DNA from: a virus | DNA length: 64,000 bases | Strand: one strand, 5' to 3' | Virus record (IMG/VR): IMGVR_UViG_3300037486_000467 | Coordinates: 1 to 64,000 of that record | Shown here: positions 1 to 22,862 of the stretch, one piece after another | Numbering within the stretch: position 1 is the first letter of the stretch | Layout: each line of letters starts with the position of its first letter | Position numbers and translations under genes: made by a program | Notes under the pieces: model-generated | What the model saw: only the letters and a program-made list of their open reading frames with translations | Database searches by the model: none | What the model was told of the DNA's origin: nothing

Positions 1-2
1 AT

Positions 3-128
3 AAAGGCGATCATATAAAAATGACTGTATGTACTCAGTGTGCTTTAGAAGAACAACAAAGAGAATGGGAAATAGAGAGACTACAGAATACAACATATTA
101 TGACGAAGGCTATGATGAAAATCGTTAA
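3..128 (+). CDS. 3' end of an upstream gene (partial; ...KGDHIKMTVCTQCALEEQQREWEIERLQNTTYYDEGYDENR*)
   Basis: Open frame from the window edge to TAA 126-128; CxxC; its stop lies inside the leader DNA of the next gene. Confidence 0.6.
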   Translation, partial: KGDHIKMTVCTQCALEEQQREWEIERLQNTTYYDEGYDENR

Positions 129-1497
129 AGAATATATTAATGAAAAGTTTACTGAAGATTCTGATCCTATACACGATATGGGTATCGGAATCAATAAAAA
201 ATTTATAGCACATCAACTTGTTCTAACAAACCCAGCAAATTCATATTTTGAAAATGCAGAATCATGGCCAGATAATATTTTATTAAAATATAGTGGAAGA
301 TTAGGAAACCCAGAATATATTGAGGGCTTTATGTCAAATGCAAAAAATATTAGAAAAGAAGATATTAATAATTGTTTACATGAAAGTGTAATGGCTTATG
401 AATTTGAAAATGTTAAATTATTAGTTGAAAAATATAAAGCAAATCCCAATGCTCCAAAAGTTATGGAATGCGCGTTAGCATCATTGGGAATCTTTCCTCA
501 TAGACATATAAAAGATCCAAATTTAGAAATTGCAAAATTTTTAATGAAACACGGTGGAAAAATACATTTTCAAAATGAAATAATTTTACGTGAAGCATGC
601 GCATTCGCTGATACTCAAATCATTAAATTTATATTAGATGATGGAGCTGATCCGCATGTGTTAAATGATGCCTGTTATCGAAAAGCTGCATTGTGGATGA
701 GTGCATCGCCTATAGTTATTAAAAAACAACGTCAAGCTGTAATAAATCTTTTGAATCAATACACAGACAAAAAACTAATTAAAGAATATATTAATGAAAA
801 GTTTACTGCAGATTCAGATCCAATAAAAGATTTGGGAATTGGACTCTATGTAATACATAATTTTTCTACTTATGATGACGCGTTTAATTGGCTCCATGCT
901 CATATAGCTATAATACTTGGTTCAGATGAAATTCCAGGCGATATTGTTTATCCAGCCGGACATCACAATATTTATAGATGGAAATATTACGAGATATTAA
1001 AAAAGTTCAGCGACAAATATATACGCATTAATGATAATCCTAATGCACACCTTATATATGATGTAGCAGAAAGATTAAGAAAAGAAGGATATCCCACTGA
1101 AACAGTTCTTGAAACAGTTAAAGAATCTTTATACGAAAAATTTACAGCAGATTCAGATCCAATCAGAGATTTAAAAATAGGTATTATCAGTGAAATAACT
1201 AGTGAAGTTTTGTTTCACACCGTTGAATATGATGAAGAACAAGTAAACGAAATAGAAAAATATGATCCGCATTTTGCTATGCTTATAAAAGCAGCTCAAC
1301 AACTTGTAGAAGAAGGAATAATAGAACAAGGAAGATATTATGATTGGATGGAAGACGAAGAGTTAGATCTTTATATTCGTAAATATCGAAAAGGAAGATA
1401 CGTCTATAATGCAAATCCAGGTAGTGATGGAGTAGGAGTATTCTTTTCAGAAATAAAATTGCCCAAAGTAAATAAAATTGTCTATGAAAATAGTTAA
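115..1497 (+). CDS. Tagged modular protein, 3 modules (module 1 ankyrin repeats; module 2 IPxDI family)
   Basis: Start moved to ATG 115 (MKIVKEYINEKF); three tag copies; ankyrin-like ILREACAFADTQIIKFILDDGADPH. Confidence 0.85.
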   Translation: MKIVKEYINEKFTEDSDPIHDMGIGINKKFIAHQLVLTNPANSYFENAESWPDNILLKYSGRLGNPEYIEGFMSNAKNIRKEDINNCLHESVMAYEFENVKLLVEKYKANPNAPKVMECALASLGIFPHRHIKDPNLEIAKFLMKHGGKIHFQNEIILREACAFADTQIIKFILDDGADPHVLNDACYRKAALWMSASPIVIKKQRQAVINLLNQYTDKKLIKEYINEKFTADSDPIKDLGIGLYVIHNFSTYDDAFNWLHAHIAIILGSDEIPGDIVYPAGHHNIYRWKYYEILKKFSDKYIRINDNPNAHLIYDVAERLRKEGYPTETVLETVKESLYEKFTADSDPIRDLKIGIISEITSEVLFHTVEYDEEQVNEIEKYDPHFAMLIKAAQQLVEEGIIEQGRYYDWMEDEELDLYIRKYRKGRYVYNANPGSDGVGVFFSEIKLPKVNKIVYENS

Positions 1498-1939
1498 AGA
1501 ACATATATACGAAAAGTTTACAGCAGATTCAGATCCAATATATGATATGGGAATTGGTATGAAAAAAATATATTCTCCGTTAAAAATACAGCATATATTA
1601 AATGCAATGACGCCTTTATGGAAAAGAATCGTTAGAAACGCCTTTAACGAATCTTTAGAAAATATTTATTATTTGGGAAATAGTTCAAGAGATAGTAAAG
1701 AATATTTAAAAAGACTTGTTTCGTTAACAGCTGCAGGAAGAAGAATATTTCAAAAAACTTTTACAACAGAATATCCTGATACAGGCGTGCCAGAAACAAT
1801 AACAGTTAAAATATATGAAACAGAGTTAGGAAAAATAGGAACATTTCAATATCCTGAATATGAAGAGGAGGCAACGCAATACTTAGGTTCTCTTGATATA
1901 GCTGTAGAATTACGAGCAAAAGAAAATATAAAACGTTGA
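1484..1939 (+). CDS. Tagged single-module protein
   Basis: ATG 1484 MKIVKEHIYEKFTADSDPIYDMGIG. Confidence 0.85.
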   Translation: MKIVKEHIYEKFTADSDPIYDMGIGMKKIYSPLKIQHILNAMTPLWKRIVRNAFNESLENIYYLGNSSRDSKEYLKRLVSLTAAGRRIFQKTFTTEYPDTGVPETITVKIYETELGKIGTFQYPEYEEEATQYLGSLDIAVELRAKENIKR

Positions 1940-2298
1940 AATTGGTACGAGAACATATTAACGAAAAGTTTACTTCAGATTCAGATCCTATAAAAGATAT
2001 GGGTATAGGTGGTATATCAATTGAAGAAATGGCACAAAAAACTATACGAAATAAAAAACTTAAAGGAACAGCTGGATTATATAAATGGCGTGAATATTTA
2101 AATTCTTTAGTTGGAAAAAAGATTACTGGAAAATTTGTAAAGTTTTCTTCTTTAGAAACAAGAAAAACAAATATTGATGAATATACATTTATAATACGTG
2201 ACTATTATAGCTTTTACGGCGGAACTGAAGTAGGATTTAAAGATGATAAAGAAAATAATTATGTTGCTATTCAAACTGAAAGATATGTAATTAGATGA
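1936..2298 (+). CDS. Tagged single-module protein
   Basis: TTG start, tag intact, 4-nt overlap with upstream stop. Confidence 0.85.
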   Translation: MKLVREHINEKFTSDSDPIKDMGIGGISIEEMAQKTIRNKKLKGTAGLYKWREYLNSLVGKKITGKFVKFSSLETRKTNIDEYTFIIRDYYSFYGGTEVGFKDDKENNYVAIQTERYVIR

Positions 2299-3017
2299 AA
2301 TTAGTTAAAGAATATATTAACGAAAAGTTTACTGAAGATTCAGATCCAATTTCAGATATGGAAATAGGTTTATTTACTAAATGGAGTAAATTGAAACCAG
2401 GAGATATAATATACAATAAAGATACAATCGGCGTTATTCAACATATAACAATACATAATTCCGGCACCATAGAAATAAGATATGCGCCTTTTTATAATGT
2501 CAAAGTTAATAAAGATATAGCAGAACGCAGCAAAGAATATATAAATTCTCATTATTCGCAAAGTATATATACACGCAAAGCTACTACTTGGGAGAAAAAA
2601 TTTAAAATTCTTAAACCAGGGGAAAAACTTTATGAGTATATAAACGAGAAGTTTACTGAAGATTCAGATCCTATTAAAGATATGGGCATAGGCGTATTTA
2701 ATAAACGCGATTTTGCTTCTTTAAGAAAATCATGGAAATTTATGTATGATATTGCTCCATATTTAGTAGGAATTAAAGATCAAAAAGAACTTCTTGATGT
2801 ATCCGCCGCACATTATATTAATGAAAATCATTATGAAACATTAAGTGATTATTATTTAGAATACATTACAGTAAAAGGATCATCACATGGATTATGGGCA
2901 GATTCTTTTGCAGATTTTATTAAAGAAAAAAAGAGAATAGGCGATCATAGCAAATATGGAAATACAATGGATAGTGATAATTATAGATATAGAAAAGGAC
3001 TAAGGAAAAACCTTTAG
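2295..3017 (+). CDS. Tagged 2-module protein (module 1 WxxLKxGD family)
   Basis: Two tag copies; WSKLKPGDIIYN. Confidence 0.85.
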   Translation: MKLVKEYINEKFTEDSDPISDMEIGLFTKWSKLKPGDIIYNKDTIGVIQHITIHNSGTIEIRYAPFYNVKVNKDIAERSKEYINSHYSQSIYTRKATTWEKKFKILKPGEKLYEYINEKFTEDSDPIKDMGIGVFNKRDFASLRKSWKFMYDIAPYLVGIKDQKELLDVSAAHYINENHYETLSDYYLEYITVKGSSHGLWADSFADFIKEKKRIGDHSKYGNTMDSDNYRYRKGLRKNL

Positions 3018-3025
3018 AAATATAA

Positions 3026-3547
3026 ATGAAGATAGTACAAGAACATATTAACGAAAAGTTCACTGAGGAATCTGATCCAATAAAAGATCTTAATATTGGT
3101 GTTATTGATAAAATTAATGAATGGATAGAAAAAAATATGCAAGTTAATAGGCACACATTAGATTCTGATATGAAAAAAAAATGTGAAGAAAAACCTCTAT
3201 ATATAATTAATGATAATGGAACTATCAACGTATATGGCACTGCGTGGATAAATTTTGGTTATAGCCCAGGCACTTATAGTAATTTAAATTTAATATTTCC
3301 AAAATATATTAATTTTAATATAATATATGGAAATTTTGATATGGGCCATCGCGACGTAATATCATTAAGAGGATGTCCTCAAAAAGTATATGGTTATTTT
3401 CGTTGTTCTCATAATAATTTAACTTCATTAAAGTATTGTCCTAAATGGGTAGAAGGACAATTTTATTGTGAATATAACGCAGTACAGTTTATAAAAGAAG
3501 ATGTAAAAAAATATTGTAAGCATATTGGAAAAGAAATAACACTATAA
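3026..3547 (+). CDS. Tagged protein with LRR-like repeats
   Basis: Tag plus ISLRGCPQKVYGYFRCSHNNLTSLKYCPKWVEGQFYCEYN repeats; paralogous to 43707..44351. Confidence 0.8.
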   Translation: MKIVQEHINEKFTEESDPIKDLNIGVIDKINEWIEKNMQVNRHTLDSDMKKKCEEKPLYIINDNGTINVYGTAWINFGYSPGTYSNLNLIFPKYINFNIIYGNFDMGHRDVISLRGCPQKVYGYFRCSHNNLTSLKYCPKWVEGQFYCEYNAVQFIKEDVKKYCKHIGKEITL

Positions 3548-3549
3548 TA

Positions 3550-4839
3550 ATGAAATTAGTACGAGAACATATTAACGAAATATTTACTGAAGATTCAGAT
3601 CCCATTATTGACATGAGTATAGGTCTTAAAGCTGTAAAAAACGAAATGTGGAAAACTCCATTCGGTGAATTAAATGATAAATATTTCTCAAAGTATCGCG
3701 TAAAATATACACTCGATAATTGGACCATTATTAATTGCCGCTTAATATTATGTGATAGTTTATGCGATATATTTGGATATATGACAGATGAAGAATATCA
3801 TTTAACTCCACAAGAAGCATTTAATAAAACACTTAATGATCCTAAATTTAATAGGCTCGAATATAATCGAGGCATTATTGGAACTGCTATAGATGATTCA
3901 GATAAACTAAGAGATGCTAATGAAATTAGAAGTCAAATTATAGCTGAAGTTTTATATGACAATTGGAAAATTAAAATTGATCCAGAAATTAAAAATGAAG
4001 CACTCACTGAAAAGTTTACTGTAGATTCAGATCCAATAAAGGATCTGGGCATTGGCGTTTTTGCTAAGCGTAACTTTACTGTAAGAGAAGATTTTATTAA
4101 TTTTTTAATAGACGCAATGCCAACTATTTTAGGAATGTCAGGAATACCTGAAGATATTGTTATAGAAATCGGATATTTAAATAAAAAATATTTTCATATT
4201 ATACGTGAATATCTTTTTAAATATGATATAACATTCGATAGTAAAAGTATATGTGATAACGATAGTTCGCCCGTATATTTTTGGCCAAAATTTGTTCGTA
4301 ATGAATTAATCAATAGAAAGATAGTAAAAGCACGCAGAAAAATAAAGGAATCTTTAAATGAAAAGTTTACTGAAGATTCTGATCCAATACATGATTTAGG
4401 AATAGGCGGAATCAATCTTTCAAAAGAAATATATTTATTAATAGAGAAATTTAAATTAACTAATATACATCAAATGGCATATATGCCTGAAGTAATAAAA
4501 TATTGGAAAGATGTATTAGAAAGAGTATTTTTAGATAGACAAGTAACTGGAATTTTTGCAAGAGGAAATGAAAATAGTTGGGGAGCTTTTCATAAATTGA
4601 CTACACAAGAAATTAAGAAAGTTGTTTTGTTTGCTGAAGATACGTTAACTTCTGATAATATGGCAGTTTTAGATTTTGCTTTAATTGCAGATGATCCTGG
4701 TGCATGGGAAAAAAATCTAGAAGATTCTAAACATTATCTTGAAAATCCCGATGAAACTTGGTATTATTATTCATTCGGCGATATGTTCTACAGGAAAGAT
4801 TATACACCTAAACAAAAATATACTATCTATTTGAAATGA
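3550..4839 (+). CDS. Tagged 3-module protein
   Basis: Three tag copies; module 2 ILGMSGIPEDIV (IPxDI family). Confidence 0.85.
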   Translation: MKLVREHINEIFTEDSDPIIDMSIGLKAVKNEMWKTPFGELNDKYFSKYRVKYTLDNWTIINCRLILCDSLCDIFGYMTDEEYHLTPQEAFNKTLNDPKFNRLEYNRGIIGTAIDDSDKLRDANEIRSQIIAEVLYDNWKIKIDPEIKNEALTEKFTVDSDPIKDLGIGVFAKRNFTVREDFINFLIDAMPTILGMSGIPEDIVIEIGYLNKKYFHIIREYLFKYDITFDSKSICDNDSSPVYFWPKFVRNELINRKIVKARRKIKESLNEKFTEDSDPIHDLGIGGINLSKEIYLLIEKFKLTNIHQMAYMPEVIKYWKDVLERVFLDRQVTGIFARGNENSWGAFHKLTTQEIKKVVLFAEDTLTSDNMAVLDFALIADDPGAWEKNLEDSKHYLENPDETWYYYSFGDMFYRKDYTPKQKYTIYLK

Positions 4840-5558
4840 AATTGGTAAAAGAACATATATATGAGAAGTTTATTGAAGATTCAGATCCAATAAAAGATCT
4901 GGGTATTGGAATTGAAGAAAAATTAAAACCACATTCTTTAGATAAATTAAAAGGAACAACTCCGCATTCTACAAGAATATGTATAGATATTTCAGAGTTA
5001 TTTGACTTACCATTATCTAAAATTTATCTTTTAGGATATTTTATAAATTCTGTTACTATTGATTCAAGAACTTATAATTTATTAGTTGATAAAAAAACAA
5101 AATTAATTAAAGAACTTAAAAAGGAAATTTCGGGTAATGGCAATGATTTAACACTATATCAAACGCCCTATGGAATGATAATGACTGAAAAGAATTTTAG
5201 TATAAATGTATGGGGAGATATAAACGCAGCAGCATATGTTCTTTTTAATGATGTTAACGAAAAGTTTATTGCTGATTCTGATCCTATTTCTGATTTAGGA
5301 ATAGGTGTATTTACTAAAAAAACATTCAGTACTCCAGAAGAAGCCGCTAAGTGGGTATTTAGGATTTTACCCGTTATTCTGAAAACAAACGAAATTCCTA
5401 AAAATATTTTAAATCGAGTAGGCGAATATTTTGGTAGTAGTTATTGGAATGAAATAGAAGAATATTATATGAGTTATATAAATATAATACCACATGATAT
5501 GATGGATTTTAAAAGATTTCATACAGAATTAGTAAAATTATGCAAGAATAATAAATGA
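4836..5558 (+). CDS. Tagged 2-module protein
   Basis: Two tag copies; module 2 ILKTNEIPKNIL. Confidence 0.85.
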   Translation: MKLVKEHIYEKFIEDSDPIKDLGIGIEEKLKPHSLDKLKGTTPHSTRICIDISELFDLPLSKIYLLGYFINSVTIDSRTYNLLVDKKTKLIKELKKEISGNGNDLTLYQTPYGMIMTEKNFSINVWGDINAAAYVLFNDVNEKFIADSDPISDLGIGVFTKKTFSTPEEAAKWVFRILPVILKTNEIPKNILNRVGEYFGSSYWNEIEEYYMSYINIIPHDMMDFKRFHTELVKLCKNNK

Positions 5559-6067
5559 AGTTGGTTAAAGAACATATAGACGAGAAGTTTGCTGAAGATA
5601 GCGATCCTATACGCGATATGGGTATTGGCATAATTACTAAAGCAGAACTCTACAAACTTGTTGCAACTCTTAAACAAAAAATACAAGAAATATTTCCTCA
5701 TGAGACTATAGAACTTAGAATTCTTACAGGAGCAAATATATATTTTTATGAAATACAAATAGAGTTCGTAGAAACTGGATCTTATGTATGGGATATATAT
5801 TTCGTTGCAAAAAAAGATCTAAATATAGGCGGTATATTACAAGATATGGGGTGGCATATTACTGTAACAACTAAAGATACATTTATTAATACTTATGATT
5901 TAGATACTTTAATACCTGCAATATTTAAAAAAGCTATTAAAACTAAAAAATTCGCGCAACAACGTATTGAAGAACTAACTATAAGATTAGAGAGATTAAA
6001 AAGACAAGAGAATCAGGTAGAAAAAACTATAGAAACGACAAAAATAATGCAGTCATACTTAAAATGA
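5555..6067 (+). CDS. Tagged single-module protein with C-terminal coiled coil
   Basis: Tag; heptad-like C-terminus similar to 20988..21560. Confidence 0.85.
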   Translation: MKLVKEHIDEKFAEDSDPIRDMGIGIITKAELYKLVATLKQKIQEIFPHETIELRILTGANIYFYEIQIEFVETGSYVWDIYFVAKKDLNIGGILQDMGWHITVTTKDTFINTYDLDTLIPAIFKKAIKTKKFAQQRIEELTIRLERLKRQENQVEKTIETTKIMQSYLK

Positions 6068-6414
6068 AGTTAGTTAAAGAACATATAAACGAGAAGTTTA
6101 CATTAGATTCAGATCCAATAAAAGATCTGGGTATTGGTAAGATAAATTTCAGAGATGAATTTGATAAGCAATATTTTGAGCCTTCTATTAAGTTATTTAG
6201 AAAATGGGAAAAATATGTTGATCAATTTCGAGGAAAAACAATTTGCGGCATTTTTAATGTATATGATTTTAGAGGAGATTATTCTGGAAAAAAAGGATAT
6301 GCAGAAGTAGAATTTACAAGTATAACATTGGATAGAGAAGGCACCATGAATTTAGAAACACCCGATCATAGTACATATTGTATACTTGATAGTGAAAGCT
6401 ATATTATTAAATAA
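6064..6414 (+). CDS. Tagged single-module protein
   Basis: Tag; W..Y....GK.I.G.F pattern shared with 1936..2298. Confidence 0.85.
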   Translation: MKLVKEHINEKFTLDSDPIKDLGIGKINFRDEFDKQYFEPSIKLFRKWEKYVDQFRGKTICGIFNVYDFRGDYSGKKGYAEVEFTSITLDREGTMNLETPDHSTYCILDSESYIIK

Positions 6415-6419
6415 AGAGA

Positions 6420-6788
6420 ATGAAATTAGTTAAAGAACATATATATGAAAAGTTTACCCCAGATTCAGATCCTATTGAAGATATGGGTATAGGAGAGTCT
6501 TATTTATTGAGAAAAAAATTTTATGAATTACAGAGAGAAAGCTATGTAGGTTCAATAAAACTTAGTTATGATGAAGATAAAGATTATTATTATGTAGAAA
6601 TGTATTACGCGTATAATGATTTGATTGGAGTAACTGCAAAATTTTTTAAACATATAGATCGAAAATATATTAATGGTAATTTTTTTAAAAGTATAGGTTC
6701 TTTAAGAGTTATAGCAGGTTATATAGTTAAACCAGAATATGTAAATATATTTAAAAAAGCACTTGAATTTTATAATGAAACTAGTTAG
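6420..6788 (+). CDS. Tagged single-module protein
   Basis: MKLVKEHIYEKFTPDSDPIEDMGIG. Confidence 0.85.
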   Translation: MKLVKEHIYEKFTPDSDPIEDMGIGESYLLRKKFYELQRESYVGSIKLSYDEDKDYYYVEMYYAYNDLIGVTAKFFKHIDRKYINGNFFKSIGSLRVIAGYIVKPEYVNIFKKALEFYNETS

Positions 6789-7134
6789 AGAACATATAAA
6801 CGAGAAGTTTACATCAGATTCAGATCCAATTACAGATATGGGTATTGGAATTGACGCAATATCTTTTAAATTAAAGGGTATTTTACTTTGGGGCTATATT
6901 CATAAAACAAGGAGAGAATATCGTGAATGGTTAAATGATGATCAAATAATTGAAGTTTTAAATCACCCATATAGTAAAATGTTTAATTTTGGAGAAGGTG
7001 GAATTGCAATATCTGTAAAAGAAGTATTTTTTTTACAAGAAAATCATATGGTTTATGATTCCATTCGTGCAATGCTTTCTGATAATTTAATTTACATCAA
7101 GTATGATGGCAAATATTATAATATACAAAAATGA
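6775..7134 (+). CDS. Tagged single-module protein
   Basis: Start moved to ATG 6775 (MKLVREHINE). Confidence 0.85.
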   Translation: MKLVREHINEKFTSDSDPITDMGIGIDAISFKLKGILLWGYIHKTRREYREWLNDDQIIEVLNHPYSKMFNFGEGGIAISVKEVFFLQENHMVYDSIRAMLSDNLIYIKYDGKYYNIQK

Positions 7135-7484
7135 AACTAGTTAGAGAACATATATACGAGAAATTTACTGAGCAATCTGATCCTGTACACGATCTTGGAA
7201 TAGGAATTGATGAAACAGTTGAACAATTTAAGAAGGAATTAAATGATGAATGGCCTACATTAACAGAGCGACATGAACATTTTCATTATTTTAAATCAGA
7301 ACCCAAATTCATTAGAATAGATGCGTATCCGCTTTCGCTATTAGGAGTGCAACATTTAAATCAAGCGCTTAAAAAGATTTATCCTAAATACAGAGATGTT
7401 TTAAAAATTACTCGTTTTGCTGGTTATAAAAATAATATAAGAAGAGGTAACGTTAATCAAGACGTCATTATTAAGATAAGATGA
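7131..7484 (+). CDS. Tagged single-module protein
   Basis: MKLVREHIYEKFTEQSDPVHDLGIG. Confidence 0.85.
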   Translation: MKLVREHIYEKFTEQSDPVHDLGIGIDETVEQFKKELNDEWPTLTERHEHFHYFKSEPKFIRIDAYPLSLLGVQHLNQALKKIYPKYRDVLKITRFAGYKNNIRRGNVNQDVIIKIR

Positions 7485-7837
7485 GAGCAAGACTAATATA
7501 TGAAAAGTTTACTGCAGATTCAGATCCAATACACGATTTGGGTATCGGAGTATTTAGTGTTCATAAATTTGAAAGTACAAAGGATATAGCCAAGTTTTTA
7601 GTAATTATTTTGCCAGCTATTTTAAGGACAAATGAAATTCCAGAAGATATTATACTCCATAAAAGATATCTTATGAATCCTAAATATCACGATAAAATGG
7701 ATGCGTATTTGAATACATATATTAAACTATACGATAAACATCTTGGACCTAAAGATACAAGATGGGACGTATATAATGAGTTATTTAAAATTTTATTAAA
7801 AATGGGATACTTACATAATGGAGAAGAATCTAGATGA
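7481..7837 (+). CDS. Tagged single-module protein (IPxDI family)
   Basis: Variant leader MRARLIYE; ILRTNEIPEDII. Confidence 0.85.
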   Translation: MRARLIYEKFTADSDPIHDLGIGVFSVHKFESTKDIAKFLVIILPAILRTNEIPEDIILHKRYLMNPKYHDKMDAYLNTYIKLYDKHLGPKDTRWDVYNELFKILLKMGYLHNGEESR

Positions 7838-9042
7838 AATTAGTTAGAGAACATATAAACGAGAAGTTTGCTGAAGATTCAGATCCAATAAAAGATATGG
7901 GTATTGGAATTACTGGGCCTAAAAAATTTTATAATAAAAAGGAACTTGTCGATCATATTATACATGCTCTCCCTCTTATATGTAATTCGGAAACAATTCC
8001 AGAAGATATTTTATATAGTATCGAACGAAACGATATACTTCCAGTAAACCTTTTTTATGAAATAATTAATTTTTTAGAAGAACATAATCAAGTAATGATT
8101 AGTAAAGATAAAAATTATACGTCAGTTAATTATGAACATGCAAGTGCATTTGATTTTAATTTTTCAAGATGGACAGTTGATCTTAGAGATAGATTACTAG
8201 AAATGGGATATGAGCAAAAACATAAAATTATTAAAGAACATATTAACGAGAAGTTTACCGATGATTCAGATCCTATAAGAGATCTAAGAATTGGCGCGTT
8301 TAAAAGAAAGATGACTTTTACAGATAAAGATGAATATATTTCTACATTATTATCTTTATTACCTCTTATTCTTGGAACTAAAGAAATTCCTAAAGATATT
8401 ATAGCTTCTTCTAACAATTATATATTTTCACCTTACTATCATACAATATCAGCTTACGTAGGTAATTATTTTACTTTTGAAGACAGTAAAAACGTAAAAG
8501 CATTTCATGACATTGAATGGTGTTTTCTTTTAAGAACAGAATTAAGAAGAATGGGATTTGAACATTTTACGTATAACGAAGATTTAAAATTAAATGTAAA
8601 TGAAAAGTTTTCTGGAGATTCTGATCCTATAACAGATATGGGAATTGGTACTATAGGTGCAATTAGGAATTTTTGTAAGCCATATATTAATCATATGGGT
8701 AAATCAGGCAGACAACATAAATTTAATTTAGATGTTATTGACGATTTATTGCTTATGTGTATTAAGGCGAAAAATCATGAATATGCCAAATATCTTTTAG
8801 ATCATGGCGCAGATGTACATTATGATGGTCCAAGTTCTACTCCTGGACTTGAAATTCCATTACGTTACGCATTCTTTTATAATGATATTAAAATGATAGA
8901 TTTGCTTATGAAATATGGCGCAGATATAAAAAAATCTATATATGATAATGAATTAGATATTGGAAGTCATAATACTCAAGGATTTAGAAAAACTACTATA
9001 AAACATGTATTAAATATATTACATGGTAAAATTTATAAATGA
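7834..9042 (+). CDS. Tagged 3-module protein (2 IPxDI modules plus an ankyrin module)
   Basis: Three tags; YAKYLLDHGADVH...PLRYAFFYNDIKMIDLLMKYGADI. Confidence 0.85.
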   Translation: MKLVREHINEKFAEDSDPIKDMGIGITGPKKFYNKKELVDHIIHALPLICNSETIPEDILYSIERNDILPVNLFYEIINFLEEHNQVMISKDKNYTSVNYEHASAFDFNFSRWTVDLRDRLLEMGYEQKHKIIKEHINEKFTDDSDPIRDLRIGAFKRKMTFTDKDEYISTLLSLLPLILGTKEIPKDIIASSNNYIFSPYYHTISAYVGNYFTFEDSKNVKAFHDIEWCFLLRTELRRMGFEHFTYNEDLKLNVNEKFSGDSDPITDMGIGTIGAIRNFCKPYINHMGKSGRQHKFNLDVIDDLLLMCIKAKNHEYAKYLLDHGADVHYDGPSSTPGLEIPLRYAFFYNDIKMIDLLMKYGADIKKSIYDNELDIGSHNTQGFRKTTIKHVLNILHGKIYK

Positions 9043-13527: not shown

Positions 13528-13897
13528 AGAACATATCAACGAGAAGTTTATAGAAGATAGCGATCCTATATCAGATATGGGCATCGGTGGTATGTGCACT
13601 ACTGGTTCTATTATAAAAACTAAGAATGATGTTGCTTGCACTAATAAAGATGTACCTTATTGTACTATTAGTACACGTGGTGATTCATATATGCAAGCAA
13701 ACACTTTTTGGGTTGTAACAAAATTTCGTTCAAGCGGAAAAGATTATATAATTAGAGTGAAGGGAATGGAAAATTTAAAACATGCTACATTATACGCAAA
13801 ACATAAAAGAAATAATTCTTATACAAATTGGACTCCATTTAATATTAAGCTTTCTTTTAATGAATTTAAAGAATATTTTGAAGTAGTTCCAATATGA
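13514..13897 (+). CDS. Tagged single-module protein (paralog of 11519..11908)
   Basis: Tag; shared LKHAxLYAK and WxPFNIKLSxNE. Confidence 0.85.
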   Translation: MKLVREHINEKFIEDSDPISDMGIGGMCTTGSIIKTKNDVACTNKDVPYCTISTRGDSYMQANTFWVVTKFRSSGKDYIIRVKGMENLKHATLYAKHKRNNSYTNWTPFNIKLSFNEFKEYFEVVPI

Positions 13898-15366
13898 AAT
13901 TAATACGAGAACATATCAACGAAAAGTTCACTTCAGATTCAGATCCTATATCAGATATGGGAATCGGAATACGTTCTGTAATTGAAAAAGAGCACGAAAA
14001 AATTAATGCTATGTCTCTTTCAGATGCATCATTATATCTTTTTAACAATAAAACTTATATGGCAGCGGTAATAGGTCTTAAACGAATTTTATCTAATATG
14101 TTAAATCAAAGTGTTTATGCAGAAGGAAAAGAGTTAAATGAAATAATTAATAATGCACGGCTAAATTACGGATTATCAGATTTTGGAATGGATCTTATAT
14201 TAAAATTTTTAAAACAAAAAATTAATGCTAGTGTCAAAACAAAAACTAAAAAAACTATAACAGAGAAGTTTACTGCAGATTCTGATCCAGTGAAAGATAT
14301 GGGAATTGGATTTGATCATGTACGAAATTTCGATAATCTTGTAGAAAGAACAGATTGGATTGCTAGAAATCTAGCTCATATATTAGATATGGAAGAAATT
14401 CCTAAAGACATTATTACTGATAAACATCATTATATTAATATGAAATACATAGATGCTATAACAGATTATGCTAGAAAATATCTTAGATATAGAGGAAATG
14501 TATATGAAGAAATTTATTGGATGAATTTAAATAACTCTTTAGAAGATCAAGGATACGTAAACGATTCGTATAATATCGATGAGAAGTTTACTGCTGATTC
14601 TGATCCAATACACGATTTAGGTATAGGTATGCCTGCAATATGGAAAACTTTAAGAAAGGGCGATGTATTAAGATTCAAAAGAACATTACAAATGAAAAAC
14701 TCTAGTAAGGTAGATATACCAAAAAACGTTTATCCTAAAGGAACTTATATTCTTATAAGAAAAGTTGAAAATCGTGATAATGACGAAAAGCTTGTTGGGT
14801 ATACTTATTATAAAACTACTAAAGATAATTTTCTAGAAAGCACACCTTCGCATAGTGCTGATTGGTTTTGGAATTATAAATTTTTTATTACATATTTTGA
14901 TTTTGTTAAAAAGGGAAATATAAAAGAATCTCTTAACGAAAAATTTACTGAAGATTCAGATCCTATAGTTGACTTAGGAATTGGTATAGACAATAGATAT
15001 AAAAAATGGTGCGAATATAAAGACGAAAAACCTTATTCTTATGAGTCATTTGTTACAGCTATCGATGAATTAAAATATGACTTTGTTAAACATTTGTTAA
15101 AGAAGGGATTAGATGTAGATGCAAAGCCAATGAGCAATAAATGGTCATATGGAGCACCTTTAAGATATGCAATATCAACTGGAAATACTAAAATGATAAG
15201 AATATTATTAAATGCTGGCGCTAATCCTAATTATGCTACAATAGCTGGTTGGATGAGGTTTACTAAGATACCTACACGAATTGAGAAGCTTATAAATGAT
15301 AAAATAAAAGAATGGAACGAACAACATCCTAAAGAATTTAATGAGAATAGTACGCGAACATATTAA
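13894..15366 (+). CDS. Tagged 4-module polyprotein (IPxDI, WKTLRKGD and ankyrin modules)
   Basis: Four tags; APLRYAISTGNTKMIRILLNAGANPN. Confidence 0.88.
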   Translation: MKLIREHINEKFTSDSDPISDMGIGIRSVIEKEHEKINAMSLSDASLYLFNNKTYMAAVIGLKRILSNMLNQSVYAEGKELNEIINNARLNYGLSDFGMDLILKFLKQKINASVKTKTKKTITEKFTADSDPVKDMGIGFDHVRNFDNLVERTDWIARNLAHILDMEEIPKDIITDKHHYINMKYIDAITDYARKYLRYRGNVYEEIYWMNLNNSLEDQGYVNDSYNIDEKFTADSDPIHDLGIGMPAIWKTLRKGDVLRFKRTLQMKNSSKVDIPKNVYPKGTYILIRKVENRDNDEKLVGYTYYKTTKDNFLESTPSHSADWFWNYKFFITYFDFVKKGNIKESLNEKFTEDSDPIVDLGIGIDNRYKKWCEYKDEKPYSYESFVTAIDELKYDFVKHLLKKGLDVDAKPMSNKWSYGAPLRYAISTGNTKMIRILLNAGANPNYATIAGWMRFTKIPTRIEKLINDKIKEWNEQHPKEFNENSTRTY

Positions 15367-16135
15367 CGAGAAGTTTACTAACGATTCAGATCCTATACAT
15401 GATCTTGGAATAGGAATGCCTTATATATGGAAGACATTAAAAAGAGGTGATATATTAAGATTTAAGAAGACACTACGTATGAATGGTAGTCATGAAGATA
15501 CAACAGGAAACACATATCATAAAGGAACTTATATTGTTGTATTAAGAGTTAAAGCTGAGGAAAAAGGTGAATGGGGTGATAAAGAAATTACGTATGATTA
15601 TTATAATTCTAAAAACAAAAATTTTTTAGATAATCCACCCGTAGAATCTAGTAATGATTGGACATGGGATTATGAATTTTTTAATGAATTCTTTGAATTA
15701 GTCAGACGAGATTTGAAGGAATCCCTTAATGAAAAGTTTACTGAAGATTCAGATCCTGTACATGATCTTGGAATAGGATATATACACCTAATAGAAGATA
15801 GAATAAAGAAAGCTGGTTATAAAAATTGGCCAAAAAATAGTTATCTTATCGTATGTGCAATACTTGGAGAAAACGAATATATTAAACTTTTATTAGATGA
15901 CGGATGGAATGTACATGAAGATAATGAAGCAGCTTTAAAAAATGCGATTCTTATGAATCGATACGAAACAGTAAAAATATTATTAGAAGCAGGCGCAGAT
16001 GTAAATGTTGAACCTCACCATATAGCGAGAGATGTTTATGAAAAAACAGTATTACAATACGCAAAAGAAGAGGGCGACATTAGAATAGTTAAACTTATTT
16101 TGAAGTATATAGCTAAAAGTAAATTAAATAAATAA
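15341..16135 (+). CDS. Tagged 2-module protein (WKTLKRGD module plus ankyrin module)
   Basis: Two tags; ALKNAILMNRYETVKILLEAGADVN. Confidence 0.88.
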   Translation: MRIVREHINEKFTNDSDPIHDLGIGMPYIWKTLKRGDILRFKKTLRMNGSHEDTTGNTYHKGTYIVVLRVKAEEKGEWGDKEITYDYYNSKNKNFLDNPPVESSNDWTWDYEFFNEFFELVRRDLKESLNEKFTEDSDPVHDLGIGYIHLIEDRIKKAGYKNWPKNSYLIVCAILGENEYIKLLLDDGWNVHEDNEAALKNAILMNRYETVKILLEAGADVNVEPHHIARDVYEKTVLQYAKEEGDIRIVKLILKYIAKSKLNK

Positions 16136-17214
16136 TGATAGCTAAATTTATATACGAAAAGTTTACTGCAGATTCAGATCCAATATCAGATATGGGAATT
16201 GGTATATTGTCAAGACTTAAGCCATTTGATATTCTTAAATGTATCAAAAGAATAAAAGCATATATAGAAGATCAACCACTCGTTTATTTTTTCATAGAAC
16301 CAGGCTATTATTCTGTTATAAATAGTGTTGATTGGAAAAATAGCAATAGTGTTATTTTTAAGTTAGCAACATTTGATAAACCTCCAAGACATTTTGATGC
16401 ACATATTTTTTCATATGGTGGTGTGGAAATTGTAACTATGTCTCCAAATAAGTTTTTTAAGCATTTTGAAATTGTTAAAGACATTAATATTAACGAGAAG
16501 TTTACTGAATATTCAGATCCAATAGCTGACTTAGGAATTGGCGGGATAAAGTCTTTTCTAATTAAAGAACTTCAAAGAGAAGGAGGAACATCTTCAGTTG
16601 ATTCTTCAAGATGTTATTATGGTAATTCTAGATATACAGATGAAGCTTTTGTAGTCTATAAAGTTTTATCTATTATAGTAGAAATAGATAATTATACGCC
16701 TGCTGGTATGCAAGCTGCATTTCAACAAGCTTTAGATGACCCTCATTCATATCGTTCTAAAACTAGAAAAACATTGCGCATAAATAAAGTAATTGAAGCG
16801 TTGTCTAAATTCTTTTACATAGATGTTGTTGATCCTAATAAAACTAAAAAACTTAAAGAATCTTTAAATGAAAAGTTTACTGAAGACACAGATCCAATAG
16901 CTGATCTTGGAATTGGTGGGTTGAAATCTTTTCTAATTAAAGAACTTGATAGAGAAGGACATATAACTTCAATTGATTCTTCGAAAAATTATTATGGTAC
17001 TTCTAAATATCATGATGAAGCTTTTGTAGTCTTTAAAATTTTATCTCGTATTGCAAAAAATGATGATTATACACCTGCGGGTCTGCAAAGCGCATTTAAT
17101 TCCGAATTAAGCTTTCAATATCATTTTGATCCCGAAATTAAGAAGACTTTGCACGTAGATAAAATAATCGAAGCGCTGGCTAAATTCTTTTACGTAAATG
17201 TTGTTCGTCCCTGA
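16135..17214 (+). CDS. Tagged 3-module protein (modules 2 and 3 tandemly duplicated)
   Basis: GGIKSFLIKELQREG / GGLKSFLIKELDREG. Confidence 0.88.
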   Translation: MIAKFIYEKFTADSDPISDMGIGILSRLKPFDILKCIKRIKAYIEDQPLVYFFIEPGYYSVINSVDWKNSNSVIFKLATFDKPPRHFDAHIFSYGGVEIVTMSPNKFFKHFEIVKDININEKFTEYSDPIADLGIGGIKSFLIKELQREGGTSSVDSSRCYYGNSRYTDEAFVVYKVLSIIVEIDNYTPAGMQAAFQQALDDPHSYRSKTRKTLRINKVIEALSKFFYIDVVDPNKTKKLKESLNEKFTEDTDPIADLGIGGLKSFLIKELDREGHITSIDSSKNYYGTSKYHDEAFVVFKILSRIAKNDDYTPAGLQSAFNSELSFQYHFDPEIKKTLHVDKIIEALAKFFYVNVVRP

Positions 17215-17248
17215 TAAAACTTAAGTCTCTTTTCTTCATAGAATCTTT

Positions 17249-18964: not shown

Positions 18965-18985
18965 ATAAAATAAAGTCAATCGTTC

Positions 18986-19438
18986 GTGAAGTTAGTACGA
19001 GAATACATATACGAAAAGTTTAGTGAAAATGGAGATCCCATTAGAGATATGGGCATCGGATCAAAATGGGCGCGACTCGAACCACGCAAAAGCCTCATAA
19101 AACCCAAAACTCGTATGTTCATGGATACGATAAAAGCGTATGAGTATGATAATCGTAGAGATGGGTGTGAATTGAATTTCATTTTAAGTCCTAAAAAAAG
19201 ATATGTTATTCATGGAGATGATAGTAATTATGGATGTATCGTAATGACAGTTGAAGAAAAAGAGAACGGAAATCTATATATAGAAGCAATACCATTTGGC
19301 GAGAGTGAAAACGCACGTAAATACATTGAAAAATATAAAGGAGATAATTGGAAAGATTCGTTTGATTGGTTTTACAAAGAAGCGCCTATTGAAGTTTGGG
19401 ATGATAAATTTGATGTCGTAAAAGAAAACGAGAAATGA
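18986..19438 (+). CDS. Tagged single-module protein (paralog of 19836..20267)
   Basis: GTG start; shared NGNLYIEAIP and DWFYKEAPI. Confidence 0.85.
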   Translation: MKLVREYIYEKFSENGDPIRDMGIGSKWARLEPRKSLIKPKTRMFMDTIKAYEYDNRRDGCELNFILSPKKRYVIHGDDSNYGCIVMTVEEKENGNLYIEAIPFGESENARKYIEKYKGDNWKDSFDWFYKEAPIEVWDDKFDVVKENEK

Positions 19439-19839
19439 AGTTAGTACGAGAATACATATACGAAAAATTTACTGAAGTTAGTGATCCGATACGAGATATG
19501 GGAATTGGCATGAGATCACTAATTGATCAATGGTATAAAGAAACGTATCATAGAAAAAGAATAATGAATTGGAATAGAGAATCAGACATAAACAGTATGT
19601 TGTCTATAGTAGCTGCTACGGGTAGAACTGATTTCATAGATTATTTGTTAACTATTGGCGCAGATATACATCATAACGGAGAAGTTGCATTACGTAATGC
19701 AGCAGTTATGAATCATATTGACACGGTAACTCATCTAATAAAAAGGGGCGCAAATGTTGATAAAGCAATAAATAACGCAATATCTGAATCTACTAAAATA
19801 ATGTTAACAAAAGCAAAAAAACTATGTAGAACAAAATGA
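19435..19839 (+). CDS. Tagged ankyrin-repeat protein
   Basis: FIDYLLTIGADIHHNGEVALRNAAVMNHIDTVTHLIKRGANV. Confidence 0.87.
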   Translation: MKLVREYIYEKFTEVSDPIRDMGIGMRSLIDQWYKETYHRKRIMNWNRESDINSMLSIVAATGRTDFIDYLLTIGADIHHNGEVALRNAAVMNHIDTVTHLIKRGANVDKAINNAISESTKIMLTKAKKLCRTK

Positions 19840-20267
19840 GATTAGTTCCAGAACATATATACGAAAAGTTTAGCGAAGAGGGCGATCCTATACGCAATAT
19901 GGGCATCGGGTCAAAATGGGTGCGACTTAAACCCGGAGAAAATATAATAAGACCGAAAAAATTAATGTATATGAATAATGTAGTAGGTCAGAATCATGTT
20001 CGCACTGATGGATGTCAATTAGATCTTGATATAAATGATGATTTTAAATACAGAGTTAATATAGACTATCATAGTATTGTGATGATGGTTAAAAACAAAA
20101 AGAATGGAAATCTATACATAGAAGCTATACCTCTTGGTTCAAAAGATCGATGTGAATCATATGTTAAAACTGGTGTAATTAAATATCATTTATGGAAAAA
20201 AGAATATGATTGGTTTTATAAAGAAGCTCCAATTTCATTTTGGGAAGATTATTTTGATGTTGTATAA
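19836..20267 (+). CDS. Tagged single-module protein
   Basis: MRLVPEHIYEKFSEEGDPIRNMGIG. Confidence 0.85.
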   Translation: MRLVPEHIYEKFSEEGDPIRNMGIGSKWVRLKPGENIIRPKKLMYMNNVVGQNHVRTDGCQLDLDINDDFKYRVNIDYHSIVMMVKNKKNGNLYIEAIPLGSKDRCESYVKTGVIKYHLWKKEYDWFYKEAPISFWEDYFDVV

Positions 20268-20276
20268 AGAAGCGCG

Positions 20277-20987
20277 ATGAGATTAGTTCCAGAACATATA
20301 TACGAAAAGTTTAGTGAAAATAGCGATCCTATACGCGATATGGGCATCGGAATATTTAGACAAAGAATATTTGATGATGCTAATACTGCAATTGAATTTA
20401 TGTTGAATGTTCTGCCCACTATTCTTAAAACTGACGAAATACCTGACGATATAATTGTTTCAAATGATAGAATAGATTATCCAGCTTGGAGTTTCAATGA
20501 TAAATATGCTCAAACTATAGTAAAATATATTGCAAGGTACGTTAACTCTCACGCTAATAATTTAGAATTCAAAACAAAAGTAGTGTGGGAATTAGTATCA
20601 AATTTACACAAAAAGGGATATCCTGGAAACGTAAAACAGAATGATAATATAGATGAGAAGTTTGTTGAAGATAGCGATCCTATAGTTGATATGGGAATTG
20701 GATTGTACAAAAGTAAAGTAAATTTAAATTCTGAAAAAGAATTCTTTCAATATATCTTATGGATAATACCTAAGATACTCGAAACTGATGTTATTCCTAA
20801 AGATATCTTAAGTAAGACTAATAATGCTAGGCATAGATCATCAATTAGTAGTGGATATTTTAATGAAATTAATCTATACTTGGAAGAGTATGTTTCATAT
20901 AAAGGCATATCAATGGCGCTAACGAAATGCGAAATGTTTTGTTGGAATAGCATAGTTGGCACTTTTTTAAAAAAACAGGGATATTAA
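20277..20987 (+). CDS. Tagged 2-module protein (both IPxDI family)
   Basis: ILKTDEIPDDII and ILETDVIPKDIL. Confidence 0.85.
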   Translation: MRLVPEHIYEKFSENSDPIRDMGIGIFRQRIFDDANTAIEFMLNVLPTILKTDEIPDDIIVSNDRIDYPAWSFNDKYAQTIVKYIARYVNSHANNLEFKTKVVWELVSNLHKKGYPGNVKQNDNIDEKFVEDSDPIVDMGIGLYKSKVNLNSEKEFFQYILWIIPKILETDVIPKDILSKTNNARHRSSISSGYFNEINLYLEEYVSYKGISMALTKCEMFCWNSIVGTFLKKQGY

Positions 20988-21560
20988 ATGAAATTAGTTA
21001 AAGAACATATAAACGAAAAGTTTAGCGAAGATAGTGATCCCATTAGTGATATGGGTATTGGTAAACTTTCTTTAAAAGAAATTAGAAAAATTCTTAGAAA
21101 TGTTAAGCAAAAATTTAAAGAACTTTTGCCTACTGATCAGATAAGAGTTGAAATGTATTCATATTTTGAAGAAGACTTAGACGTTTATGAAGTTACGTTT
21201 AAACTTAAATCTGGTTATCATCTTCAAGCAACACTTTTTGGATCGCAAAGGGGTGTTGATAAATGGCATGAAGTGAATGCTGAAAGATTAAAATCTGCGA
21301 ATATTCATTCAACACTTCCCAAACGTATTGGCTGGGCGGTGTATAGATATTATTCTTCTAATAATAAAGCATACTTTGTTGAATTAGAAAACTATGATGA
21401 ATTAATAAAAGATATGATTAAATGTACGTTTTCTGGAGACTTTTTCGATGGTATGATAAATAAGGAAACTGCGTTACGAGATAGATTAGCAAAAAAATTA
21501 TCTAATGTTCAAATATCTATTGATTCAACAAAAATTTTAAAACAAGTTTTTTCAGAATGA
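20988..21560 (+). CDS. Tagged single-module protein
   Basis: Tag; resembles 5555..6067. Confidence 0.85.
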   Translation: MKLVKEHINEKFSEDSDPISDMGIGKLSLKEIRKILRNVKQKFKELLPTDQIRVEMYSYFEEDLDVYEVTFKLKSGYHLQATLFGSQRGVDKWHEVNAERLKSANIHSTLPKRIGWAVYRYYSSNNKAYFVELENYDELIKDMIKCTFSGDFFDGMINKETALRDRLAKKLSNVQISIDSTKILKQVFSE

Positions 21561-22324
21561 AAAGAGTTAAAGAATATCTTGTTGAAAAGTTTACTGAAGA
21601 TTCTGATCCTATTAGCGATATGGGAATTGGAATAGTATCTAAATTGAATGAAAAATTACCAGAATTAATATTAAAAGCTGACAAACAATATCTTCTTTGG
21701 TCTGTAGCAATAAGCAATAATGAAATAACTTTTCATTTTGATCATGCAAGACTTAGTACACACAAGGAATTTAGATCTGAAAAAATACTTTTACATACTG
21801 TAAAAAAAATTATTAATGATTTACATTTAAATACAGTTTTTTCAGATATTAAATTAAGCCCTCTTAAAATACAAAATGATGCGTATGGTAATTTTTCACG
21901 CGCACCAAAAGTTATTGGAAAAATAAATAAAGAGTTTCAAAGATATTTAAAAACAGAAGAAGATATTTTTTTAAATAGAAGTGCGTTGAATGATTATATT
22001 AATGAAAAATTTATTGAGAATTCTGATCCGATACAAGATATGGAAATAGGAAATAGAATTTCATGGGAAACTCTAAAACGTGGAGATGTAATATACAATC
22101 TTAATAGAAGTAGCACTGCAATCGTTCAAGATACTTTTAAAAAAGATGATATTTTATCAATAACATATGTACCCTTTGCGGGTGGTACTATCGAAGAACG
22201 CATAGAAATAGCAAAAAATTGGGAAAGATATATTGTTTTTATGAATAATACAAAAGAAATGAAAATTTCGGAATGGGAAAAACAATACAAAATTCTTCAA
22301 CCTTATGAATTTAAAAATAAGTAA
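21557..22324 (+). CDS. Tagged 2-module protein
   Basis: Two tags; module 2 WETLKRGDVIYN. Confidence 0.85.
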   Translation: MKRVKEYLVEKFTEDSDPISDMGIGIVSKLNEKLPELILKADKQYLLWSVAISNNEITFHFDHARLSTHKEFRSEKILLHTVKKIINDLHLNTVFSDIKLSPLKIQNDAYGNFSRAPKVIGKINKEFQRYLKTEEDIFLNRSALNDYINEKFIENSDPIQDMEIGNRISWETLKRGDVIYNLNRSSTAIVQDTFKKDDILSITYVPFAGGTIEERIEIAKNWERYIVFMNNTKEMKISEWEKQYKILQPYEFKNK

Positions 22325-22328
22325 TTCA

Positions 22329-22862
22329 ATGAAAATTATTAATGAAAAATTTACAGATAATGATACTGATGCATTACAAGATATGGGCATCGGAATAACT
22401 ACTATAATGACTAAATGGTTTGAAGAAGAATTAAAAATAAAACAACCAAAGCCTGATGATGCATTAGTAATTTGTGCTAGAAACGGAAAACTTGAATTTG
22501 TTCAATATTTAGTTCAACATGGAGCAAAGGTAAAAAGAAATGATTCTGAATGTCTTCAACAAGCAGCCGCAAATAATCATATAGAAGTAGTAAAATATTT
22601 ATTAAGTAAAAAATCTAAAGCAGACGGAAATGATAGTTTTGGAATGAGACAAGCCGCAAGGAATGGTAGTTATGAAATGACTAAACTTTTACTTGATGCA
22701 GGAGCAGATCCGAATGCTAAAAAAGGATTTGCGCTAAAAATGGCAAAATTATATGGACTCAAAGAAATAGTTAAATTACTTAAACAGTATGGCGCAGTTG
22801 AAGATGTTCCGCCTATAGTAAAAGATAGTATTGCTAATGATGTACCCAATACAGAATTTTAG
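22329..22862 (+). CDS. Ankyrin-repeat protein with divergent tag (last gene of the array)
   Basis: Start moved to ATG 22329 (MKIINEKFTDNDTDALQDMGIG); four clear ankyrin repeats. Confidence 0.88.
   Translation: MKIINEKFTDNDTDALQDMGIGITTIMTKWFEEELKIKQPKPDDALVICARNGKLEFVQYLVQHGAKVKRNDSECLQQAAANNHIEVVKYLLSKKSKADGNDSFGMRQAARNGSYEMTKLLLDAGADPNAKKGFALKMAKLYGLKEIVKLLKQYGAVEDVPPIVKDSIANDVPNTEF

Follow-up and report, generated by a model that had tools for sequence, protein, structure and literature searches.

Tagged modules arrayed in a huge-phage contig may be prohead-loaded proteins cut apart by a T4 gp21-type protease

The closest described counterparts of the proteins considered here are the internal head proteins of bacteriophage T4, IPI, IPII, IPIII and Alt, which are ejected with the DNA. 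According to a review, the initial 10 residues of IPIII are enough to direct it to the head; within this 10-residue capsid-targeting sequence (CTS), residues 4 and 7 serve targeting and residues 8 and 10 serve processing, and the prohead protease gp21 cuts after L/I-X-E (PMC9026906). CTS leaders span ~10-19 N-terminal residues and terminate in L/I-x-E. In the T4 record NC_000866, both IPII and IPIII start with MKTYQEFIAE, and the propeptide of the capsid protein gp23 ends in FLTE, with AEIGG following the cut. Here we describe a locus within the first 64 kb of the viral contig IMGVR_UViG_3300037486_000467 (83,640 bp in all), a stretch that we refer to as the window. The locus is an array of genes in which a 25-residue element, the tag, is repeated and followed each time by a cargo domain. 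An original prediction had read this array as a hugely expanded set of internal proteins, carried in the capsid and injected with the DNA, with a leader like that of T4.

A second comparison is provided by the inner-body and ejection proteins of phiKZ, 201phi2-1 and SPN3US, all huge phages whose heads contain many paralogous internal proteins. In the available portions of two papers, gp21-like proteases cut these proteins behind the Glu of a short S/A/G-x-E motif, and the proteins show conserved N-termini among diverged paralogs and redundant cleavage sites within propeptides, many of which exceed 100 residues; those portions describe no many-cargo polyproteins (PMC9026906, PMC5694885). The locus described here resembles these systems in having many related N-termini and a candidate site that ends in Glu, and it differs in having I, L or V three residues before the proposed cut (P3), leaders of 10 residues, and a short, two-part tag that is repeated internally within single proteins.

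The window was scanned in six frames with the core pattern D[PSA][IVL].[DN][LM].I[GS], which identified 58 tags, 58/58 on the + strand. The array proper holds 53 tags in 28 overlapping genes (100-22862), and the other five lie in two open reading frames (ORFs) outside it (Table 1). The same core pattern gave no tag in the remaining 19.6 kb of the contig. At most junctions, adjacent array genes overlap by 4 nt (ATGA) or are separated by 0-9 nt. Both the number of tags, given originally as 53 in 28 genes and five in two other genes, and the tight coupling of the genes are therefore borne out, and we consider the observation confirmed as real and far beyond chance.

The tag motif reads (MKLVREHI)NEKFTxDSDPIxD(M/L)GIG, with the consensus xxxxxExINEKFTxDSDPIxDMGIG, and consists of a 10-residue leader followed by a 15-residue core. 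In a 57-row alignment, F12, D17 and I24 never vary, and conservation reaches 90% or more at E10, K11, P18, D21 and G25; across the full set of 58 tags, D17 and I24 remain invariant. The median pairwise identity of the protein is 73% for the core and 30% for the leader. Synonymous codons vary at the conserved P, G, I and S positions, and the identity between pairs of tags at the level of DNA has a median of 65% and a maximum of 92%. Because codons vary synonymously and the median DNA identity stands at 65% against 73% for the core protein, we conclude that selection acts on the tag peptide. This conclusion bears on the possibility that the repeat is kept mainly as a DNA recombination site for cassette shuffling, with a peptide that has no common function. 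Modules are indeed shuffled and duplicated at tag boundaries, and the most similar tag pairs are close at the level of DNA, as such a role would lead one to expect. However, codons vary freely even at invariant residues, every tag lies on the coding strand and in frame, and the peptide is conserved across relatives whose cargo is down to ~30-40% identity. We disfavor a DNA repeat as the sole explanation and regard it as very improbable.

The end of the leader lies in a fixed register. The triplet [ILV]-x-E occupies positions 8-10, directly before K-F, in 56 of the 58 tags, and one of the two exceptions is a register shift in which I-N-E still stands before K-F. If the triplet is numbered P3 to P1 from a cut after Glu, then P3 is I, L or V in 56/58 tags and P2 is N in 37, Y in 12, D in 4, T in 2 and Q in 1. 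The form [ILV]-N-E is found in 37 of those 56 tags, and 37 tags contain a second [ILV]-x-E four residues upstream. Among the 150 best public relatives, Glu precedes K-F in 485 of 505 tags. Leaders at gene starts read MKLV(K/R)EHINE, and internal copies in multi-module ORFs read [LIV]KES[LVI]NE. When the 25 N-terminal tags with a 10-residue leader were compared with MKTYQEFIAE, 17 leaders shared five of the 10 positions, 2 shared six and 6 shared four. The originally proposed comparison with the start of T4 IPII and IPIII consequently holds at the level of the leader.

A module consists of a tag and a cargo of 70-193 residues. The cargos had been described as different after each tag, which is accurate for the 20 singletons; the other 38 of the 58 fall into 10 recurring families, comprising 12 members of a helical family ('EIPEDI'), 8 ankyrin cargos, two families of 3 and six of 2. 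Ankyrin repeats are the only cargo in the window that is recognized by Pfam, with Ank scores above the 21.1-bit cut-off in the proteins at 100-1497 (26.3), 11905-13527 (28.8) and 13894-15366 (24.5), and with an Ank_3 score of 22.6 bits against 22.3 in a fourth ankyrin-type protein at 7834-9042. Of the cargo types that had been suggested, ankyrin is thus supported, while the leucine-rich-repeat-like type found no Pfam support in the proteins at 3026-3547 and 43707-44351. Searches of the PDB with profiles of three cargo families gave no relative at E up to 0.1, and a search of the ESM Atlas with the protein at 7481-7834 gave low scores only, the Atlas model having a predicted local distance difference test (pLDDT) value of 0.40. 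Across the loci analyzed, 346 tags yielded 326 unique modules, which fall into 107 cargo clusters, 70 of them singletons; the largest clusters comprise ankyrin and repeat types (95), the helical 'EIPEDI' family (46), and then 13, 9 and 7 modules. Ankyrin is also the commonest recognized cargo in public relatives (40 of 86 scanned), with almost nothing else recognized.

The head genes of the lineage can be read from a relative, G001, an IMG/VR contig of 405,016 bp that has direct terminal repeats, is rated 100% complete, and contains 88 tag matches, grouped in about a dozen clusters throughout the genome. G001 is syntenic with the window's contig, with identities of 72% for the helicase, 82% for the portal protein and 40-88% for most genes in the interval 22.9-80 kb, and its helicase gene is also flanked by tagged genes. 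A single match to Peptidase_S77 (gp21) was found in G001 (61 bits against a cut-off of 27), and it lies inside an ORF of 781 residues that we call the protease-scaffold ORF. The N-terminus of this ORF aligns with T4 gp21 (PDB 5jbl, E 1.5e-4), and the next protein, of 590 residues, matches T4 gp23 (E 2e-5). By these homologies, the lineage is T4-like in its head genes. Tagged genes are found near the head genes in both contigs, directly upstream of the protease ORF in G001 and ~1 kb downstream of the portal gene in the window.

The triplet found in the tags recurs in these head proteins. In the protease-scaffold ORF of G001, [ILV]-N-E occurs 10 times against 1.25 expected (Poisson 8e-7), which ranks first among 669 ORFs, and the capsid protein ranks sixth, with 3 against 0.23 expected. 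None of 2000 shuffled versions of the protease-scaffold ORF reached 10, and the enrichment is seen only with N at P2 and E at P1. The homologous ORF shows the enrichment in all 17 close relatives, with 8-13 sites where 0.85-1.8 would be expected, and to a lesser degree in all 6 distant relatives. At the propeptide junction of the capsid protein, most of 20 close relatives read HALNE followed by A(A/E)MGG, with LNE in 17, LTE in 1 and LYE in 2, and the 6 distant relatives read HSINE followed by NAY. The P2 variants N, Y and T are common to the capsid junctions and the tags. Because [ILV]-N-E is both enriched in the protease-scaffold ORF and present at the capsid propeptide junction, we have good indirect evidence that it is the maturation site of this lineage and that it is carried by every tag. 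The evidence that the tag includes a prohead-protease site together with a T4-like targeting leader is, in our assessment, reasonably strong, although likewise indirect.

The modules appear to be units in their own right. At the G001 locus that is syntenic with the four-tag ORF downstream of the portal gene, a one-tag gene stands alone and shares 48% identity with the last module of that ORF (residues 363-483); the neighboring modules have been replaced between the two loci. Furthermore, 11 of the 12 largest cargo families include members that start with a Met-leader of their own as well as members placed second or later in an ORF. Because a module can be the last part of a four-module ORF in one phage and a separate gene in another, and because nearly all large families show both arrangements, we regard the modules as independent units. 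Such interchangeability of fused and split states is what would be expected if the fusion products are cut, or if modules act independently.

We propose that the array encodes polyproteins that are loaded into the prohead, cut into modules by a T4 gp21-type protease and probably ejected, a proposal that we consider about equally likely to be right or wrong. The array would represent a lineage-specific, greatly expanded family of small modular proteins loaded into the prohead, within which the maturation protease would cut the chains apart. Each module would begin with a two-part signal. The first part, ~10 residues ending in [ILV]-N/x-E, would match the T4 CTS in its length and in its key positions 8 and 10. 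The second part, KFTxDSDPIxD(M/L)GIG, would stay on the mature module and could serve a second common step, e.g., core binding, ordering or ejection. ORFs of 2-7 modules would be polyproteins, because their internal leaders retain the [LIV]KES[LVI]NE form. Once released, the modules (10-22 kDa; ankyrin, helical, beta-rich and Zn-ribbon types) would reside in the head as internal proteins and would most likely leave it together with the DNA, in the manner of T4 IPI-III and Alt. The tag motif and its occurrence were observed, as were T4-type head genes and an [ILV]-N-E triplet common to tags and head proteins; cleavage, packaging, ejection and any anti-defense role are inferred.

Several observations weigh against this proposal. 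The 15 residues of the tag that are most conserved follow the proposed cut, while the CTS of T4 precedes its cut, so the T4 model explains the leader and not the core. The Peptidase_S77 protease was not found on the window's contig, a fragment with a CheckV completeness of 21%, and was found in the relative instead. Cargo domains show no avoidance of the triplet, with 38 [ILV]-N-E sites against 35.3 expected, a ratio of 1.08 compared with 1.26 in untagged proteins. The isoelectric point of modules does not set them apart from other proteins, unlike that of the basic internal proteins of T4. The helicase gene that splits the array into two blocks (17249-18964; phrog_2488, E 8e-108) lies inside the co-directional array gene string. 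A few public proteins carry tags between large enzyme-like domains, as in P0040 (1339 residues), in which a long untagged N-terminal domain is followed by four tag modules and a C-terminal DUF6267 (E 1e-58). A promoter-like word described below, ATATATAAAATAAA, also precedes many non-structural genes (Zn-finger or nuclease-like) in G001, and because it is not specific to structural genes there, it gives no evidence of late timing. Finally, the relatives are kin, and the enrichment of the triplet in their ORFs consequently shows persistence, not independent origin, and does not amount to replication.

Some of these points would be better accommodated if the tagged proteins were cytoplasmic effectors or adaptors that never enter the virion, with the tag docking their binding domains to one phage or host hub. 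Multi-module proteins would then stay intact and act multivalently, and [ILV]-x-E would be part of the docking motif. A core more conserved than the leader fits a binding peptide better than a discarded propeptide, and the commonest cargo, ankyrin, is a protein-binding scaffold; the position of the helicase gene, the cargo that does not avoid the triplet and the tags between enzyme-like domains also count in its favor. However, docking leaves to coincidence that the same triplet is enriched in the protease-scaffold ORF, stands at the capsid junction and falls at leader residues 8-10, and it does not account for the leader that is present without the core on other proteins. We view this explanation as unlikely, while granting it a real share of the probability.

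The evidence for a protease site and a targeting leader serves equally well a second alternative, in which the array proteins are packaged and processed yet structural, forming a phiKZ-like inner body that organizes ~400 kb of DNA or sets head size, with ejection being incidental. Giant phages hold large internal masses of processed paralogs, as far as the available portions of the two papers show (PMC9026906, PMC5694885). The cargo clusters counted above represent a turnover that is extreme for a lattice, and the replacement of neighboring modules between the syntenic loci of two relatives is difficult to reconcile with one. Moreover, a 436-kb phage of the wider capsid lineage (95% complete, capsid protein 32% identical) has no tag. 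We consider a purely structural role improbable.

Exchangeable receptor-binding proteins usually consist of a conserved N-terminal piece and a variable binding domain, and the combination of a tag with variable cargo matches that layout. The tag could accordingly be an anchor that holds variable binding domains at a repeated capsid or tail site on the virion surface, similar to a tailspike or Hoc, with ankyrin and repeat-rich cargos serving as adhesins. Decoration proteins and fibers would not be expected to have a prohead-protease site at every module boundary, though, and the modules are small, are mostly neither beta-helical nor fibrous, and match no structural-protein family, which makes surface display a slim prospect in our judgment.

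With these alternatives weighed, the proposal of prohead-loaded polyproteins can be set beside T4. Both have a 10-residue N-terminal leader with a hydrophobic residue 8 and Glu at 10, placed on unrelated small cargos; both lineages have a gp20/gp21/gp23-type head and a known or proposed cleavage triplet of the L/I-x-E type; and in both, cargo varies greatly between relatives. The array proteins had no internal-protein PHROG match when compared with T4 IPI, IPII and IPIII, which limits the likeness to the leader pattern. In contrast to the three internal proteins and Alt of T4, which are single genes, 58 modules are present on one fragment here and 88 tags in the complete relative, many of the modules are strung together as putative polyproteins, and an additional 15-residue motif, which T4 lacks, follows the proposed cut and exceeds the leader in conservation. 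The original prediction is thus partly supported: a targeting leader removed by the protease gains independent support from the T4-type head genes and from [ILV]-N-E in the protease-scaffold ORF and at the capsid junction, the core after the proposed cut does not resemble the T4 CTS, and no support was gained for the virion location, injection or anti-defense role of the array proteins.

Two other viral systems share part of this layout. Known viral polyproteins are those of RNA viruses and retroviruses, which are cut in the cytoplasm by the viruses' own proteases. They too yield several products per ORF with the same short site at each boundary, whereas the cutter proposed here would be the capsid-maturation protease of a tailed phage, for which we found no precedent in the literature searched. 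The poxvirus ANK/PRANC proteins comprise many ankyrin-type domains joined to a C-terminal F-box-like element that acts on the ubiquitin system of the eukaryotic host. They resemble the array in that many ankyrin-type binding domains share one short conserved element, but the element of the array is an N-terminal peptide, repeated within ORFs and encoded by a phage. The array differs from the CTS-bearing internal proteins of T4, and from the head proteins that are processed in giant phages, in its scale, its polyprotein layout and its retained second motif.

We also determined how widely the tag is distributed. A tag profile searched against 1.84 billion representative proteins matched 1594 at E<=1e-3, 678 at <=1e-10 and 105 at <=1e-30, with up to 10 tags in a single protein. 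The array, with its 58 copies, is therefore not unique to this contig and is one member of a large metagenomic family. Ten protein clusters that were examined were all metagenomic (ENA, JGI, Logan), and their proteins, if named, were called 'hypothetical protein' or 'ankyrin repeat protein'; similarly, a homology search with a 129-residue array protein returned 6 matches only, 'hypothetical protein' where named. In IMG/VR, tblastn confirmed 140 of 158 pattern matches, of which the 80 best-scoring stretches were kept and gave 68 loci. In contrast, a scan of 185,579 cellular genomes gave 49 pattern matches, of which only 3 passed tblastn. Two of the three are true tags on metagenome-bin contigs of 1.9 kb and 8.4 kb with 31% guanine-plus-cytosine (GC) content, and the third, on a contig of 60% GC, is a chance match. 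We reject a cellular origin of the tag and conclude that it is essentially phage-restricted.

The tag is likewise absent from the reference collections searched. It had no match in Pfam or NCBIfam and none among PDB chains at E up to 10, which, together with the scan of cellular genomes, agrees with the expectation that it is not a known domain common in cells. Weak matches of phrog_24110 and phrog_1554 over the tag were attributed to chance, since a single tag of the 58 matched one of the two (12.7 bits) and no tag matched the other. Among 50,697 deposited phage records, tblastn with a one-tag and a seven-tag protein gave no match even at E up to 1, and megablast of 12 kb gave none. The Lak megaphages, which are the nearest named relatives of the window's portal protein (~40% identity), therefore lack the tag. 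In agreement with what had been stated originally, the open literature searched contains no description of the tag, although the supplementary protein-family tables of huge-phage papers could list the family; the available portions of the Jug-phage and moraphage papers do not describe it. Within the lineage, a 129.7-kb relative (G005) has four weak, divergent tags at 660-750 nt spacing in one 1282-residue open frame (126961-129207, -), which may represent the family in an older or drifting state. Given this relative and the tagless 436-kb phage, the tag family is confined to part of the lineage.

The positions of the array and of other features in the window are collected in Table 1. The window has a GC content of ~28%. 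The sequencing runs listed as holding this stretch are sediment metagenomes, with no RNA run among them, and the best-matching run may be the sample from which the contig came. Because the truncated gene at the contig start, a 41-residue gene end, weakly resembles the Zn-ribbon cargo family, the array may continue upstream.

Table 1. Coordinates of the array, of other tagged or leader-bearing genes and of associated features in the window.
Feature	Position	Strand	Remarks
Gene 3' end cut by contig start	3..125	+	CxxC, then a Q/E-rich tail; weakly like the Zn-ribbon cargo family
Array block 1	100..17214	+	21 overlapping genes, 1-7 modules each, 44 tags
Example 25-residue tag	7834..7908	+	10-residue leader ending I-N-E, then 15-residue core KF(T/A)xDSDPIxDMGIG
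Largest multi-module ORF	9039..11522	+	827 residues, 7 tags; candidate polyprotein
One-mismatch copy of ATATATAAAATAAA	18961..18974	+	12 nt before start of block 2
Array block 2	18986..22862	+	7 genes, 9 tags; start 21 nt past the helicase gene
T4 gp20-type portal gene	30417..32210	+	gp20-like match; context, outside the array
Four-tag ORF	33285..34751	+	4 tags; ~1 kb downstream of the portal gene
GH24 lysozyme	41769..42665	+	starts (TTG) with the exact leader LKLVREHINE, followed by SLNESLNES and a hydrophobic helix; without the DSDPI core
Single-tag gene	43707..44351	+	1 tag; divergent leader, repeat-rich cargo; ortholog in the 405-kb relative 50% identical
ATPase	46302..47960	+	leader-like start MKKLVPESIEE ... 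NLNE; without the core motif
121-residue gene	62677..63042	-	leader and degenerate core (MKKLVSENLNEYWESSDTGL...); adjoins a putative tail-tube gene

Besides the two tagged ORFs, three genes outside the array carry the leader or a form of it. In the GH24 lysozyme, the order is leader, stacked S-L-N-E sites, hydrophobic helix and then catalytic domain, and this protein could be a head-loaded muramidase or a membrane-anchored endolysin. Because its leader is exact and the core is missing, the leader is separable from the core. The leader-like start of the ATPase, MKKLVPESIEE with L-N-E ~20 residues in, is kept in the relative's ortholog. The third is the 121-residue gene, whose neighbor was assigned as a putative tail-tube gene by gene order and length only. 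Among public proteins, P0094, P0121 and P0138 begin with another short N-terminal leader that also ends in L-x-E and heads an untagged domain of ~400-550 residues; this second leader type recurs just before the first tag in the same proteins.

The word ATATATAAAATAAA looks like a phage promoter or start signal. Six exact copies are present in the window, at 24271, 30387, 34765, 41748 and 46270 (+) and at 61359 (-), each 8-28 nt upstream of a gene start and in the gene's own orientation, and the genes behind them include those for the portal protein, the lysozyme, the ATPase and a 3206-residue ORF. With up to 2 mismatches, 39 matches were found in the window against 19.8 expected, and one-mismatch copies precede the genes at 18986, 22911, 36784 and 40436. 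In G001, 75 copies with at most 1 mismatch were counted, and 60 of these are no more than 60 nt from the start of an ORF. The word may resemble the T4 late promoter, TATAAATA. A scan of positions 1-20000 for sigma-70 promoters and terminators gave counts at or below the shuffled expectation. An exact copy of ATATATAAAATAAA also precedes the G001 gene at 157439-157984 (-), which lies amid tag clusters and encodes a 181-residue protein with five [ILV]-N-E sites against 0.4 expected; this protein may be a small prohead-core protein.

Other genes near the array were noted as well. A permuted transfer-messenger RNA at 32978-33182 (+; Rfam RF04321, 55.1 bits against a gathering score of 47) lies between the portal region and the four-tag gene. 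A phage-encoded sigma factor at 37067-37732 (+) contains Sigma70_r2 and r4_2 and is 76% identical to the relative's counterpart. The 3206-residue ORF extends over 51727-61347 (-), and part of it is 43% identical to a 969-residue protein of the 405-kb relative. Beyond the window, a long ORF with collagen-like Gly-x-Gln-Gly repeats at 80468-83638 (-) is cut by the contig end, and similar repeats adjoin the capsid gene of the 405-kb relative.

More tentatively, and at clearly less than even confidence, we suggest a wider form of the proposal, in which a clade of huge sediment and freshwater phages would use a two-part 'loading code', with a 10-residue leader that is removed and a 15-residue handle (KFTxDSDPIxDMGIG) that stays on the module. 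Upwards of 50 different modules, and as many as ~90, would be packed, many as protease-cut polyproteins, to form a fast-evolving arsenal that is injected with the DNA. The handle would act as a novel type of signal, either for ejection in order or for docking to a host target that the modules have in common.

If this is true, dozens of small domains would be delivered per particle as cleavable strings, compared with the three internal proteins and Alt of T4, and the array would be the first case in the literature searched of tailed-phage polyproteins processed by a capsid-maturation protease. The rule of leader, [ILV]-N-E and 15-residue core would pick candidate ejected proteins from metagenomes, and the short tag could serve to load large phage heads with foreign proteins. 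Should the capsid reading prove wrong, a phage-only element of 25 residues, at ~60-90 copies per genome and with no match in the domain libraries searched, is real and calls for an explanation. If the reading holds, the 1594 representative proteins and more than 100 cargo families would constitute an unexplored pool of likely host-takeover or counter-defense factors in huge phages of the Bacteroidota type.

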